Source of the DNA: an uncultured bacterium
GTDB taxonomy: Bacteria; Hydrothermota; UBA3072
Direction: 5' to 3'
Length of the DNA: 64,000 nt
Assembly: GCA_964606065.1 (NCBI GenBank)
Contig: CAZSEX010000001.1
Coordinates: forward strand, 112,429 to 176,428
Shown here: positions 582-58,056 of the stretch, piece after piece
Layout: every line of letters begins with the position of its first letter
Numbering within the stretch: position 1 is the stretch's first letter
The notes under the pieces: model-generated
What the model saw: only the letters and a program-made list of their open reading frames with translations
Told to the model about the DNA's origin: nothing
The model's database searches: none
Translations under genes and position numbers: made by a program

Positions 582-722
582 AATCTCTCCCTTTGTTTGT
601 TTTGTAGTTTAGTTTATATTATAAACAAGTTTATACTTTTGTCAAGGGGGAATTTTTGCCACAAAGTCACCAAGACACTAAGGCTTTCAATTGTTGAAAA
701 TTAAAAAGTCAATTTTTAATCC

Positions 723-912
723 GTAGCGCGGGGGTTTATCCTCCGTAAATCGCATGGTAGGGACGAGCCCCAACGCTACTGAGATCATGGAAGTTCGTAG
801 CGCGGGGGTTTATCCCCCGCAAATCGTATGTTGGGGACGAGCCCCAACGCTACTGAGAGCGTGGAAGCGTGTAGCGCGGGGTTTATCCCCCGCGAATCAT
901 CTGGTGGGGACA
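723..912. repeat. Tandem repeat of a 74-bp unit, 2.6 copies. Each unit carries two GC-rich hairpins (CGCGGGGG-TTTAT-CCCCCGCG and GTTGGGG-ACGAG-CCCCAAC) closed by GTAGCG...CGCTAC.
   Basis: Units start at 723, 797 and 871 (GTAGCGCGGGGGTTTATCC...). Copies are about 90 percent identical and the third is truncated. GC-rich palindromes in an AT-rich intergenic region. Confidence 0.8.
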
Positions 913-919
913 ATGAATT

Positions 920-1909
920 TTATATCTTAATCCAGGTTCCTTTTTTATGGCTTTCGATGATTTTATCTATAACTTTCATATTGGCGACTGCGTCTTCGAT
1001 CGGAGTCGGAACCTTTGACTCGTCCAATATTGCCTTGGAAAATGAATCTCCCTGGATTGTATATTGATTGCACGCTTCAAAAATAATTTCTTTAGTTTTC
1101 GTACCTACCTGATGCATAATCTTGCTTTTGTTATCAGGTAAAGGAACAAATGGCATCGGCATTTCTATTTTAACGTCCGCCCCCAATATATCAACGCGGC
1201 TATGCGCTGTCATTTGAGTCGAGCATGTGAATGTGGAAGTGCCCCCTTCGAATTCCAATACGGCGGATACCAGACGATCTATCTTCATTTTGGGATCGTA
1301 TTTAATGGCAGCGCAAACACGAACAGGTTCGCTCCCAAAAAGGAATCGAGATGAAGATATGCAGTAGCAGCCTATATCTAATAAGCCTCCTCCTCCGGTT
1401 TCGAGCTGATTGCGTATATCTTTCGGATTATCATTATAATATGAAAAGATTGAATGAATATTTTTTAACTCGCCAATTTTTCCCTCGTCTAACAATTTTT
1501 TTGCCGTCTGCCATTGGGGGTGAAAACGATACATGCATGCTTCCATTACCTTTAAATCTGAAAATTTCTCCGCTTTTTGCTTAAGACCTTCAGCCTGCTT
1601 GAAATTCATTGAAATTGGTTTTTCGCATAAAACGTGTTTACCCATTTCTAATGATTTAAGCGTCCATTTCGCATGGAGATGATTTGGAAGCGGTATGTAT
1701 ACAGCTTCAATTTCGGGGTCTTCGAGTAATTTTTCGTACGAGCCGTAAGCTCTGGGAATCCGGAGTCGGCGCGCGACATTTTCAGCCTTTTCGATATTGC
1801 GAGATGAAACAGCGCTGATTTGTGAATATTTTCCCTTTTGCATCGCGGGTATTACTTTTTCGACACCGATTTTTGCCGTACCTAATACTCCCCAGGATAT
1901 TTTTTTCAT
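920..1909 (-). CDS. Gfo/Idh/MocA family NAD(P)-dependent oxidoreductase
   Basis: N-terminal Rossmann fold (ISWGVLGTAKIGVEKVIPAMQ ... EAVYIPLPNHLHAKWTLKSLEMGKHVLCEKP), typical of the family. Confidence 0.8.
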   Translation of the reverse strand: MKKISWGVLGTAKIGVEKVIPAMQKGKYSQISAVSSRNIEKAENVARRLRIPRAYGSYEKLLEDPEIEAVYIPLPNHLHAKWTLKSLEMGKHVLCEKPISMNFKQAEGLKQKAEKFSDLKVMEACMYRFHPQWQTAKKLLDEGKIGELKNIHSIFSYYNDNPKDIRNQLETGGGGLLDIGCYCISSSRFLFGSEPVRVCAAIKYDPKMKIDRLVSAVLEFEGGTSTFTCSTQMTAHSRVDILGADVKIEMPMPFVPLPDNKSKIMHQVGTKTKEIIFEACNQYTIQGDSFSKAILDESKVPTPIEDAVANMKVIDKIIESHKKGTWIKI

Positions 1910-4734: not shown

Positions 4735-5165
4735 TTATATTTTCCCCGGACAATCTTTAATTCTGTTCAGTCCTTCTCTTATTTCGTTTTCATCCAGAGC
4801 ATAGCTGAGACGGATTCTCGAAGGAGCGCCGAACCAGCTGCCCAGATATCCTATTACTTTATAATCCATATAAAGTTTGGTCGCGAATTTTTTAGGTTGA
4901 GACGCTTTCGGAAGCACGTAAAAGGCTCCTTCCGGCTTCCAGAGACTTAAACCCATCTCCTTTAGTCCTTCGTATATTATATCTTTTCTTTCTTCCATAT
5001 TTTGAGCTGATTGGTTACGTATGATTTCGGGCTTTTCATCGCTTTTAGAGCCATATTCTGTCCTACCAGGTTGGTGTTCATGGAAGTGTGTGTTTTCATT
5101 TCGATAATCTTATTCACGAATTTCTGGTCGAGACTCCACAAATAAGCAACACGGACGCCGCACAT
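4735..5165 (-). pseudogene. C-terminal remnant of a class I/II aminotransferase, split across two frames
   Basis: ORFs 4977..5165 and 4735..4998 translate to aminotransferase C-terminal motifs (HTSMNTNLVGQ, GAFYVLPK, RIRLSYA). There is no N-terminal 250 aa, the two pieces are in different frames, and an unrelated ORF sits upstream. Confidence 0.5.
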
Positions 5166-5472
5166 CCTTTTTATCGGATTTTTTTATTTGAGGTCTTTCT
5201 TTTGAGGCTTCTTTTTCCGCTTCTTCCTCTCTTTGAATCGAAGCTTCAACCGACAGAAGAATAATTTTGACATCTTCGAGGGAAGCAAATTTCTCCTCTA
5301 AGAAATCAAGAACTCCTTCTGTTTCTTTTGAAGAAAGAAGAATTTTCATCAGTGTTCTCTCGACTGTTATTTCCTCGTTCCAGTAAGTCAAAACAGGCTG
5401 TTCTTTTAAAGAGGATTCCGCCTCTTCTCTCTTCTCTCCGGGAATAACCATTTCGATTAAACGCAAAGCCAT
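5110..5472 (-). CDS. Hypothetical small acidic protein (120 aa)
   Basis: ORF only, Glu-rich C-terminus, no recognisable motif. Confidence 0.3.
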   Translation of the reverse strand: MALRLIEMVIPGEKREEAESSLKEQPVLTYWNEEITVERTLMKILLSSKETEGVLDFLEEKFASLEDVKIILLSVEASIQREEEAEKEASKERPQIKKSDKKDVRRPCCLFVESRPEIRE

Positions 5473-5894: not shown

Positions 5895-5921
5895 GTCGTT
5901 GGGGACGAGTCCCAACGCTAC
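5895..5921. repeat. Solo partial copy of the second hairpin of the 74-bp repeat (GTCGTTGGGGACGAGTCCCAACGCTAC)
   Basis: Near-identical to the GTTGGGGACGAGCCCCAACGCTAC part of units at 723-912. Lies in the divergent promoter region upstream of the transglutaminase-like gene. Confidence 0.7.
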
Positions 5922-6067
5922 GGTTTTTTATCTGTGTTGGGCAGTACCTTCAATCATCCTTTATTGTTCTTCCGTGTTCTCTGTGGGCTTTGGTGTTCAA
6001 AATAAGTTCTTTTAAAGCCCTTGACTTTAAAATAAACAAAGTTATTTTTTTTGAAAAAGGAGTAATA

Positions 6068-20704: not shown

Positions 20705-20760
20705 GCACAAGATTATCACAAGAAATTGCACCGCAGAGACGCAGAGGACGCAAAGAAACA
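20705..20760 (-). repeat. Partial copy (about 50 bp core) of the 146-bp dispersed element, upstream of era
   Basis: gattatcacaagaaattgcaccgcagagacgcagaggacgcaaaga matches 57751-57800 and the reverse complement of 51440-51476. Contains TGTGATAAT (extended -10 / Fur-box-like palindrome TGATAATCA) on the minus strand. Confidence 0.7.
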
Positions 20761-49386: not shown

Positions 49387-49429
49387 CCATGGAGGATACG
49401 GAGAAAAATTATGTTGTTTTTCCCAATCT

Positions 49430-49580
49430 CGATTAGAAATTGTAGGAGCGGCTTCCCAGCCGCGATAAGAAATTGTAGGAGAGGTTTCCTCGTCCTGTGG
49501 AATAGGGGTTCATCAGGTAACAGATTCTATTCCACGGGACAAGCCGCGATAATCGGGACAGGGATGTCCCTCCTACAAGA
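49430..49580. ncRNA. Candidate structured RNA / palindromic element in the M23-to-lipoprotein intergenic region
   Basis: AAATTGTAGGAG occurs twice (49436, 49469) and CTCCTACAA (49569) is its complement. A 12-bp stem CCTGTGGAATAG / CTATTCCACGGG (49492-49536), GGGACA-GGGA-TGTCCC (49553-49568), CGGCT-tccca-GCCG. Strand undetermined. Confidence 0.3.
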
Positions 49581-50566: not shown

Positions 50567-51337
50567 ATGATGCAAAAAATTCTATTAAAATTATTTATCT
50601 TGTTTATAGTTTCAATAAACGTATTAGCAGAACCTTACAAACCGTATCCGGTAATTTTCGTACACGGTCTCGGCTCCAGTTCGGGCGCTTGGGGTGCGCC
50701 TACACGTCTCAGAAGTGACTCTATACCTGAGGATTCGCTGGTATCAGGGCACACCTACAAACATTTCCTTGATTATATGGATCCTTATGCGATTGTGTGG
50801 GATGAATTTGACTCAACTTATACACATCCAGGAGGAACTCCGGGACATCCTAACCCTGATCCCGCTTACCCCAACAAAACCTTTCTCGAGGTGATTAATT
50901 TCAATTATAATCGTGGGAGTATTGATAGAGATACCGAATATGACAGTCCTGATTATAAGGGGCAGGGAGATGAGTTGTGGCACAGGATAAAAGAAGTTCT
51001 TGATGAGTATTATGGAGAAGGACAATGGGAAGATAACAGAAACGCGAAAGTGATTCTCGTTGGACATTCTATGGGAGCATTAGCTACAAGGCAGGCTATA
51101 AAAGAAGATGTGATTTATCATGATTCCCTACTTGTTCCTCATCTCGATAAAGTTATAACAATGGGTTCTCCTTTATCTGGTTCTATCTGGCCAACCCAGT
51201 TCCTGAGATTTCCTTTTGGAAATACTTTGTTCGTATGGCATCCGATTTCACAGCTAAACCAGTCAGTTGTGAAGAAATTAAGAAATTTATTCCATTGGGC
51301 AAGCCCCGTAGGGAAAGATGACTGTATCGGGGTGTGA
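50567..51337 (+). CDS. Secreted alpha/beta-hydrolase, lipase/esterase-like
   Basis: Signal peptide, PVIFVHGLGSSSGAW, nucleophile elbow VGHSMGA. Confidence 0.7.
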   Translation: MMQKILLKLFILFIVSINVLAEPYKPYPVIFVHGLGSSSGAWGAPTRLRSDSIPEDSLVSGHTYKHFLDYMDPYAIVWDEFDSTYTHPGGTPGHPNPDPAYPNKTFLEVINFNYNRGSIDRDTEYDSPDYKGQGDELWHRIKEVLDEYYGEGQWEDNRNAKVILVGHSMGALATRQAIKEDVIYHDSLLVPHLDKVITMGSPLSGSIWPTQFLRFPFGNTLFVWHPISQLNQSVVKKLRNLFHWASPVGKDDCIGV

Positions 51338-51343
51338 TTTGTT

Positions 51344-51489
51344 GTCACTTAATTTATTTGATGTGTTAGTACGTGAGTGTGTTGGTGGGTAAAAAACAGC
51401 CCAACCGACAAACAGATTGACAGTAAAAATCTTTGCGTTTTTTGTGTCTCTGCGGTGCAATTTTCTTGTGATAATCAGTGTAATCTCCT
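51344..51489 (+). repeat. 146-bp dispersed element, copy A (inverted partner at 57742-57887)
   Basis: About 96 percent identical to the reverse complement of 57742-57887. Contains TTGACAgtaaaaatctttgcg and TTCTTGTGATAATCA (extended -10 / TGATAATCA palindrome) oriented towards the 51566 gene. Confidence 0.85.
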
Positions 51490-51565
51490 GATTCTTGTTT
51501 GGAGTTTTGGAGTGGCTCTTGACAACCAAATTATTTTATGTATCCTAAATTCAAACGGAGGATAG

Positions 51566-57720: not shown

Positions 57721-57741
57721 AACCTCCAATAGGAACCACAG

Positions 57742-57887
57742 GACTACACTGATTATCACAAGAAAATTGCACCGCAGAGACACAAAGAACGCAAAGATTT
57801 TTACTGTCAATCTGTTTGTCGGGTGGGCTGTTTTTTACCCATCAACACCACTCACGTACTAACACATCAATTAAATTAAGCGATAAC
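57742..57887 (-). repeat. 146-bp dispersed element, copy B (inverted relative to copy A)
   Basis: See copy A. Five differences across 146 bp. Confidence 0.85.
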
Positions 57888-58056
57888 AAATCCTATTCCG
57901 ATACAGCAATCATTCCTTCCGGGACAGGCTCAATAGAATAGAAGTTCTTGCGAAATATTTTCCCATTCCACAGGACAGACAAAGAAGTGGAGTTGACTTG
58001 ACTTTTCATAATAAAACTACTATAATTTTTAATAATATAGGGGATATATTAAAAAA

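Follow-up and report, generated by a model that had tools for sequence, protein, structure and literature searches.

The stretch of DNA analysed here, referred to as the window, comprises 64,000 nucleotides from an uncultured bacterium, and close to its beginning a GC-rich tandem repeat separates two genes that are both located on the minus strand. The upstream gene encodes a Gfo/Idh/MocA oxidoreductase, and the next gene downstream of the array encodes a membrane protein. The array lies 8 nt past the oxidoreductase stop codon and 77 nt upstream of a perfect TTGACA-16-TATAAT promoter, in agreement with a preliminary description of this DNA, which had placed it between the stop of an oxidoreductase gene and the promoter of the following gene. 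Tandem Repeats Finder identified positions 722-911 as a tandem repeat with a period of 74, 2.6 copies, 87% matches, 0 indels and a score of 282. An independent repeat search of the window recovered the same units in the same register and added a partial family member at 5898-5921, and the 74-bp double-hairpin tandem repeat of 2.6 units reported earlier was thereby upheld by both programs. A 19-nt core pattern matched three times in the window, compared with 0.01 matches expected from shuffles.

Each repeat unit consists of two 24-nt GC hairpins, each carrying an unpaired 5'-GTAGC tag, which are inverted relative to each other and face heads-out. The arm on the plus strand (arm A) is GTAGC-GCGGGGG-TTTAT-CCCCCGC, and the second arm (arm B) is GTAGC-GTTGGGG-CTCGT-CCCCAAC on its own strand, or GTTGGGG-ACGAG-CCCCAAC-GCTAC on the plus strand. 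Within an arm, a GC stem of 7 bp closes a 5-nt loop, and GTAGC stays unpaired on a single side only; every arm in the window starts with GTAGC, and arms A and B are only ~71% identical. The inter-arm spacers in the array measure 9 nt, giving a doublet core of 57 nt, and the linkers between doublets measure 17 nt. Reading of the sequence confirmed the GTAGCG...CGCTAC ends and both internal hairpins as they had been described. The features are collected in Table 1.

Table 1. Coordinates of the repeat array, the solo arm and the neighbouring features in the window.
Feature	Position	Strand	Basis or remark
Arm A copy 1, degenerate: GTAGC GCGGGGG TTTAT CCTCCGT	723..746	+	On the GTAG strand, the stem has G·T wobbles at two positions
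Arm B copy 1, degenerate: minus strand GTAGC GTTGGGG CTCGT CCCTACC	756..779	-	Sequence reading and repeat register
Linker 1 TGAGATCATGGAAGTTC, repeated along with the doublet	780..796	.	Sequence reading and Tandem Repeats Finder
Arm A copy 2, intact: GTAGC GCGGGGG TTTAT CCCCCGC	797..820	+	Sequence reading and hairpin maps
Inter-arm spacer of 9 nt, AAATCGTAT; its place is taken by a RAYT (REP-associated tyrosine transposase) gene in related loci	821..829	.	
Arm B copy 2, intact: minus strand GTAGC GTTGGGG CTCGT CCCCAAC	830..853	-	
Linker 2 TGAGAGCGTGGAAGCGT	854..870	.	Sequence reading and Tandem Repeats Finder
Arm A copy 3, 5' stem half short of one G	871..893	+	
Truncated arm B GGTGGGGAC, interrupted in its loop at a distance of 8 nt from the oxidoreductase stop codon; the truncation is shared by relative L118	903..911	-	
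Solo arm B (REP singlet) GTTGGGGACGAGTCCCAACGCTAC: minus strand GTAGC GTTGGGA CTCGT CCCCAAC	5898..5921	-	Divergent intergenic region
Upstream gene, Gfo/Idh/MocA oxidoreductase, stop codon 920-922	920..1909	-	Array would fall in its 3' untranslated region
Promoter TTGACA-16-TATAAT of the downstream gene (ATG at 581)	618..645	-	Kept in relatives without the array

The solo half-copy previously noted about 5 kb away is present, but it starts at 5898 and not at 5895 as first given. No partner arm A was found upstream of this solo arm B. The array and the solo arm are the only two loci of arm hairpins in the 64-kb window, a density far below that of classic REP-rich genomes.

A search for further copies, which had been proposed in the preliminary description, was positive. 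The arm-B 20-mer GGGACGAGYCCCAACGCTAC had 10 exact matches in three species-representative MAGs, two of which are labelled Cloacimonadota, and a slightly relaxed arm-B pattern was present in 107 metagenome stretches. The copies are strongly extragenic, with 21% of 135 matches located inside stop-free stretches of at least 150 codons, which hold 81% of all bases (p ~7e-50). A GTAG lay within 70 nt upstream, in the heads-out orientation, for 71 of the 135 arm-B copies, and a hairpin then followed in most of those. The partner arms used for the covariation analysis (copies of arm A) were chosen solely by this GTAG tetranucleotide upstream of arm B. Their stems had 82.9% of cells paired, compared with 54.1% in shuffles, and the covariation score was 0.705 against 0.227 in shuffles, a value reached by none of 500 shuffles and undercut by all slid controls, with changes on both sides of the stem in 7 of 7 pairs. 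The hairpins are thus kept by compensatory changes, a check that had likewise been proposed. In all fetched loci, GTAG[CA] stood on exactly one side in 155 of 233 perfect GC-rich hairpins with a 7-bp stem and a 5-nt loop, and on both sides in 0. Sequence conservation ends at the tag, and no conserved target or extension past GTAG was found, only A/T richness. Many arm-B variants were wobble-compatible solely on the GTAG strand, a comparison that is confounded by transition bias and shared descent; given this confounding, the asymmetry between A·C and G·T mismatches is suggestive as an indicator of the folding strand and was not relied on.

Tandem arrays of the same doublet with other linkers were present in contigs L077 (period 65, 4.7 copies), L074 (period 65, 2.8 copies) and L086 (period 68, 2 copies), and tandem arrays of equivalent doublets in L064 (period 96, 3.8 copies, with variant arms) and L125 (period 92, 3.3 copies). 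Among the contigs L011-L117, the exact arm-B 20-mer occurred at GC contents from 33% to 63%, and arm B was paired there with many arm-A stems (GCGGGGG, GCCGAGG, GTCGCCC, GCGGGAC, GTTGCAC and others). The GTCG-for-GTTG variant of arm B predominates in GC-rich contigs, and its T·G wobble occurs only on the GTAG strand.

Relatives sharing the gene order aminotransferase, P-type ATPase, oxidoreductase and membrane protein made it possible to compare the orthologous site. In L118, whose oxidoreductase is 88% identical, the array has the same ends, including the truncated arm B, and exactly one unit fewer, with a clean 73-nt alignment gap. In L119 to L122 (77-80% identical, same synteny) there is no element; the intergenic region of 207-210 nt is AT-rich, unrelated and without hairpins, and the promoter downstream of the array is conserved despite the missing element. 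Copy number therefore varies among related genomes, for which a check had been suggested, by one unit in L118 and down to none in L119 to L122. Presence and absence of the element at an orthologous site, by which REPIN mobility may be judged, were both seen. The absence in L119 to L122 could also represent a deletion in these relatives and not an insertion in the lineage of the window. On the side of the window towards the solo arm, positions 4735-5165 (minus strand) hold only the 3' part of an aminotransferase gene (residues 209-350 of 351, with a frameshift near 4983-4992), which is intact in L123. Synteny with L123 stops at ~5165, and the solo REP lies ~730 nt beyond that break.

A gene for a Y1/HUH transposase of 153-156 aa is enclosed, in related metagenome contigs, by the same two arms oriented as in the window. 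The copy in L008 (5391-5861) encodes a 156-aa protein with a Pfam Y1_Tnp match (E 2e-17), and an arm hairpin follows ~45 nt downstream of the ORF. This protein, the one copy scanned, exceeded the cutoff of 80 on the NCBIfam model NF047646, 'REP-associated tyrosine transposase', with 102.7 bits, but stayed below that of the IS200 model (44.5 bits; cutoff 55). It aligned to the E. coli TnpA-REP (YafM; PDB 4ER8) with an E-value of 1.6e-7, and the HUH (PDHIH), IWQ...R and YI.NNPV tyrosine motifs were conserved; its best PDB sequence match was ISDra2 TnpA, with an E-value about that of TnpA-REP. Homologs of 59-65% identity were detected by tblastn in six further loci, always at most 100 nt from a hairpin, and these loci had been fetched by DNA pattern only. 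The RAYT gene is flanked by same-type REPs in L008, L049/L114, L074, L064 and L093, and in L074 the tandem A-B arrays of period 65 flank it on both sides.

The order in L114 and L049 is arm A (GTAGC-GCGGGGG-TTCAT-CCCCCGC), 48 nt, the RAYT gene, 27 nt and arm B inverted. The window unit has the same arm types in the same orientation, with 9 nt in place of the RAYT gene. Since the same arms sit to the left and right of the RAYT gene in relatives, the window unit represents a gene-less, non-autonomous derivative of this layout. L049, L114 and L036 have flanks in common and are therefore one locus, not several insertions. A tblastn search of the 64-kb window with the L008 protein returned no RAYT homolog (best E 2.2), and no tnpB was present beside the RAYT-type transposase in the gene tables examined. 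GTAG-tagged hairpins, with other stems, also flank more distant RAYT homologs (47-62% identity), whose labels are WOR-3, Dehalococcoidia, Planctomycetota and LCP-89, and the WOR-3 and Dehalococcoidia loci keep the two loop types of the window, TTYAT and CTYGT. A copy 99% identical to the L008 RAYT is labelled candidate division WOR-3. The nearest named ThiC homologs (73-88% identity) carry this label too, which differs from the Cloacimonadota label of MAGs sharing the hairpin.

Some of these loci have further repeats around the transposase gene. In L008, a direct repeat of arm B together with ~50-60 nt of conserved downstream sequence (…CGCTACGGRAATGAGATTTATTTCACCGCAAAGA…AAATATGAATAAAA) at 5214-5290 and 5906-5985 brackets the RAYT gene, and two more GTAGC-tagged hairpins are located directly upstream of its start codon. 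The conserved tail that follows arm B in L008 also follows arm B in L098 and L111. In L125, which is labelled Dehalococcoidia, positions 770-2570 hold a RAYT gene surrounded, over ~1.8 kb, by densely packed GTAG-tagged hairpins that form tandem arrays with periods of 68-92. These hairpins are GTAG-GGGCGGGT-CTTGT-ACCCGCCC and GTAGT-GGCGGGG-TTTAT-CCCCGCC; their loop types match those of the window arms and their stems differ.

Considering all the above results, we concluded that the 74-bp repeat is very probably a tandem cluster of REPINs (REP doublets), a non-coding mobile DNA dependent on a RAYT that is known here from relatives only. Each unit is a GTAG-tagged REP heterodimer of the HH type (a REPIN), and its tandem arrangement with a 17-nt linker resembles a BIME-2 or REPIN cluster. 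The palindromes have the length (24 nt, within the 20-40 bp of REPs), GC-rich 7-bp stem, 5-nt loop and one-sided GTAG of GTAG-tagged REPs, and their stems are maintained by complementary changes across related copies. Like the arms of a REPIN, the two inverted REPs are separated by a short spacer of 9 nt and can fold as one long, imperfect hairpin. As in BIME-2-like clusters, a head-to-tail REP pair with its linker varies in copy number, L118 having one unit fewer. The preliminary description had argued for a DNA-level mobile or REP-like element and against a cis-regulatory RNA, and this proposal agrees with what was observed in anatomy and family, in the existence of other copies and their extragenic bias, in compensatory changes, in copy-number and presence differences at the orthologous site, and in the arms that flank RAYT-type genes in relatives.

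We infer RAYT-mediated mobilisation, the mechanism of amplification and any RNA-level effect from the literature, and the model proposed here follows what is established for E. coli TnpA-REP and IS200/IS605. A RAYT whose gene lies at another place in the genome would bind the folded hairpin and its 5' GTAG tag on single-stranded DNA, and by cutting and rejoining the DNA it would allow doublets to spread through extragenic space. Singlets such as the solo arm B would represent decayed or partial doublets. After insertion, the doublet and its 17-nt linker may have multiplied on the spot, through slipped-strand or unequal recombination of direct repeats, resulting in the 2.6-unit array. The one-unit difference from L118 would be accounted for by such local amplification or contraction through recombination or slippage between direct repeats.

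In E. coli, BIME-2 elements consist of alternating inverted Y and Z2 REPs with short conserved linkers and a variable number of tandem units, and the GTAG 5' of the hairpin is recognised by the HUH/Y1 enzyme TnpA-REP. Binding of gyrase and IHF is also known for BIMEs, and binding by Pol I is counted among the properties of BIME-2 as well. The window array shares with BIME-2 the two inverted REP types, the short conserved linkers, the variable unit number and the GTAG 5' of the hairpin. In contrast, the window hairpins are simple 7-bp stems, whereas the stems in E. coli are longer and bulged, and the RAYT of the relatives has low sequence identity to TnpA-REP (the E-value of 1.6e-7 given above) while sharing its HUH, WQ..R and Y motifs. 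BIMEs of E. coli represent the same concept as tandem REPIN clusters (PMC6006769).

Several features have counterparts in Pseudomonas fluorescens SBW25, in which tandem REPIN clusters include flanking sequence, some lie beside RAYT genes, and singlets were interpreted as REPIN remnants (Bertels and Rainey, 2011; PMC3116915). Like the window unit, SBW25 REPINs comprise two inverted REPs with a short spacer, can be folded as one long hairpin and form ordered tandem clusters, and the counterpart of their singlets in the window is the solo arm B. Unlike SBW25 REPINs, the window arms are different sequences (a heterodimer, ~71% identical) with a spacer of only 9 nt, and the host is an AT-rich (39% GC) uncultivated lineage of anaerobe type and not a pseudomonad. 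REPs of the GTAG-tagged super-family were described as carrying an unpaired terminal GTAG and stems of 6-9 bp, with complementary stem variants and G·T pairs; they form HH dimers, in which GTAG faces outwards, and clusters that consist of dimers repeated head to tail along with adjacent DNA, and REPtrons were reported as well (Di Nocera et al., 2013; PMC3733652). As far as the passages of that paper used here go, the window shares the GTAG tag, the stem length class, the complementary stem variants, the G·T pairs, the HH heterodimers and the tandem dimer clusters. None of the species named in these passages is WOR-3 or Cloacimonadota, and 'Cloacimon' is absent from the text. That paper distinguishes 24 families, one of which may coincide with the consensus of the window arms, a 7-bp stem with the loops TTYAT and CTYGT.

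The transposase linkage also bears on another origin, in which the unit is a PATE- or MITE-like miniature of an autonomous IS200/IS605 element that still transposes as a unit, instead of a REPIN served by a single-copy domesticated RAYT. IS200/IS605 elements share a Y1/HUH transposase acting on subterminal single-stranded-DNA hairpins, and their miniatures are ends without the gene. In L114 and L049, arm A, the Y1 transposase and arm B together have the compact look of a complete small IS, the best PDB match is ISDra2 TnpA at about the same E-value as TnpA-REP, and the occurrence of the RAYT subfamily in MAGs labelled as several phyla could reflect horizontal spread. We nevertheless consider this origin unlikely. 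The protein passes the RAYT model and fails the IS200 model, no tnpB accompanies it in the gene tables examined, and the apparent recurrence in L049, L114 and L036 is one locus with shared flanks. Moreover, their inversion and GTAG tags give the end hairpins the form known from REPtrons, whereas the LE and RE of IS200/IS605 are on the same strand (PMC6006769).

Readings at the RNA level depend on how the unit folds. As RNA, its minimum-energy fold is one long hairpin in which arm A pairs with arm B (-34.5 kcal/mol), imperfect because the arms are only ~71% alike. The three-way junction by which the RNA form had first been described reaches -28.7 kcal/mol, 5.8 kcal/mol worse, and is therefore a possible but not a predicted conformer; as a description it is feasible and weak. 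With DNA folding parameters, two local hairpins were preferred over the pairing of arm A with arm B, and the three-way junction is simply two inverted GTAG-tagged REPs written as a single strand. A structured cis-regulatory or small RNA, made of tandem three-way junctions and controlling the oxidoreductase or the downstream membrane-protein gene, would be in keeping with the better folding of the region than of shuffles (z -5.2 on the plus strand, -3.5 on the minus strand) and with a weak likeness to Guanidine-II (13.6 bits) and MDR-NUDIX (15.8 bits). However, these best local Rfam scores are below the gathering thresholds of 32 and 54.9, the same hairpins turn up next to many unrelated genes, in either orientation, and four syntenic relatives, with genes and promoter retained, have no element in that intergenic region; together with the energy penalty of the junction, this makes such an RNA very unlikely. 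Another origin, in which the host evolved a terminator or mRNA-stabiliser cassette by local duplication without any relation to a transposase, would suit stable hairpins directly 3' of a stop codon in a unidirectional gene pair, but the hairpins lack T-runs, the sole terminator-like match within the array has a stem of 5 pairs and lies on the wrong strand, and identical arms occur in more than 100 other loci and flank RAYT genes, so that we regard it as extremely unlikely. A stabilising role can coexist with the REP explanation and does not amount to a different origin. A degenerate CRISPR array or remnant might be suggested by the period of 74 bp, about the sum of a ~37 repeat and a ~37 spacer, and by the palindromic repeats. 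In such an array the spacers would differ, whereas here the entire 74-nt period, 'spacers' included, is 87% conserved among units, two different inverted hairpins with their linkers alternate as repeats, and the same hairpins also occur as scattered single copies and on the flanks of transposase genes. With the 'spacers' conserved, CRISPR is excluded for practical purposes, as the preliminary description had also held.

Two further candidates were set aside. Rfam returned no match at gathering thresholds in the whole 64-kb window and, at a permissive E-value in 500-1100, only sub-threshold matches at chance level (blv_FSE, c4-2, MDR-NUDIX and Guanidine-II); known Rfam RNA families were rejected, all scores being under their gathering thresholds. 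An attC/integron site, for which GTTGGGG...CCCCAAC offers a GTTRRRY / RYYYAAC look-alike, appeared improbable and was dropped, the palindrome having only a 5-nt loop and carrying the GTAG tag.

With the repeat taken as a REPIN cluster, its position may still have consequences for the transcript. No terminator was found between the oxidoreductase stop codon and the array, and since the array begins 8 nt after the stop, it is probably co-transcribed with the oxidoreductase as part of its 3' UTR. The array hairpins could then act as a barrier to 3' exonucleases and stabilise the oxidoreductase mRNA, a putative by-product role.

The window element is a member of a well-described kind, with new arm sequences and a new host lineage of the uncultivated WOR-3/Cloacimonadota type, and not a new RNA or system. 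To our knowledge, work on REPIN-RAYT systems has dealt almost exclusively with Proteobacteria and Cyanobacteria, and the usual picture of them is strictly vertical and lineage-specific. A literature search on REPs and RAYTs in Cloacimonadota, WOR-3 and Dehalococcoidia gave no linking paper, and the few co-occurrences were not about REP elements there. A clear REPIN-RAYT case in MAGs of the WOR-3/Cloacimonadota type is a useful comparative data point on how such elements arise and persist. In this case the RAYT lies precisely between the two arm types, and orthologous sites show both presence or absence and a one-unit change. For annotation, the assignment of this conspicuous GC-rich repeat to REP/REPIN with RAYT argues against labelling it a riboswitch, sRNA or CRISPR array. 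In practice, such arrays break short-read assemblies, and they could serve as strain markers.

It is possible, and we propose it only tentatively, that one undescribed REP-RAYT super-family is shared by several phyla that are uncultivated and mostly anaerobic (the labels on RAYT homologs being WOR-3/Cloacimonadota, Dehalococcoidia, Planctomycetota and LCP-89), with an obligate heterodimer in the WOR-3/Cloacimonadota-type and Dehalococcoidia loci, loops TTYAT and CTYGT, freely covarying stems and the RAYT between the arm types. If this were true, the two ends of the REPIN would have remained distinct as left and right, as in a deletion derivative of an IS-like unit that is still complete. The exact arm-B 24-mer would also have moved between genomes of 33-63% GC, against the strictly vertical picture.

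The window contains other repeats as well. At 49420-49580, between two plus-strand genes, there is a second intergenic cluster of GTAG-headed GC hairpins, including a 33-bp tandem repeat of 2.1 copies. These hairpins (GTAGGAG-CGGCT-TCCC-AGCCG and, on the minus strand, GTAGGAG-GGACA-TCCC-TGTCC) have a head and stems unlike those of arms A and B, and the cluster probably represents another REP family of this genome. An inverted repeat of ~220 bp, with 128 nt at 90% identity, occupies 51288-51506 and 57721-57940. Both copies end in GGCTCTTGACAACC just upstream of a gene start (51566, plus; 57722, minus), an arrangement resembling a promoter-region module that was duplicated and now encloses 6.2 kb.

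A triple 8-nt periodic motif, CRCNNAG x3 (e.g. CACAAAGTCACCAAGACACTAAG), is located at 660-682, 20732-20755 and 57773-57796, and in inverted form at ~51430-51463; it was found three times in the window and in 0 of 100 shuffles. Read on the other strand, it is CTTNGTG x3, after which comes GCAAAAATT or GGTGCAATTT, and TTGACA boxes are located 12-70 nt further downstream. The motif is shortened in L118 and missing from L119 to L122. Similar motifs adjoin REPs in L001, L006, L009, L087 and L092.
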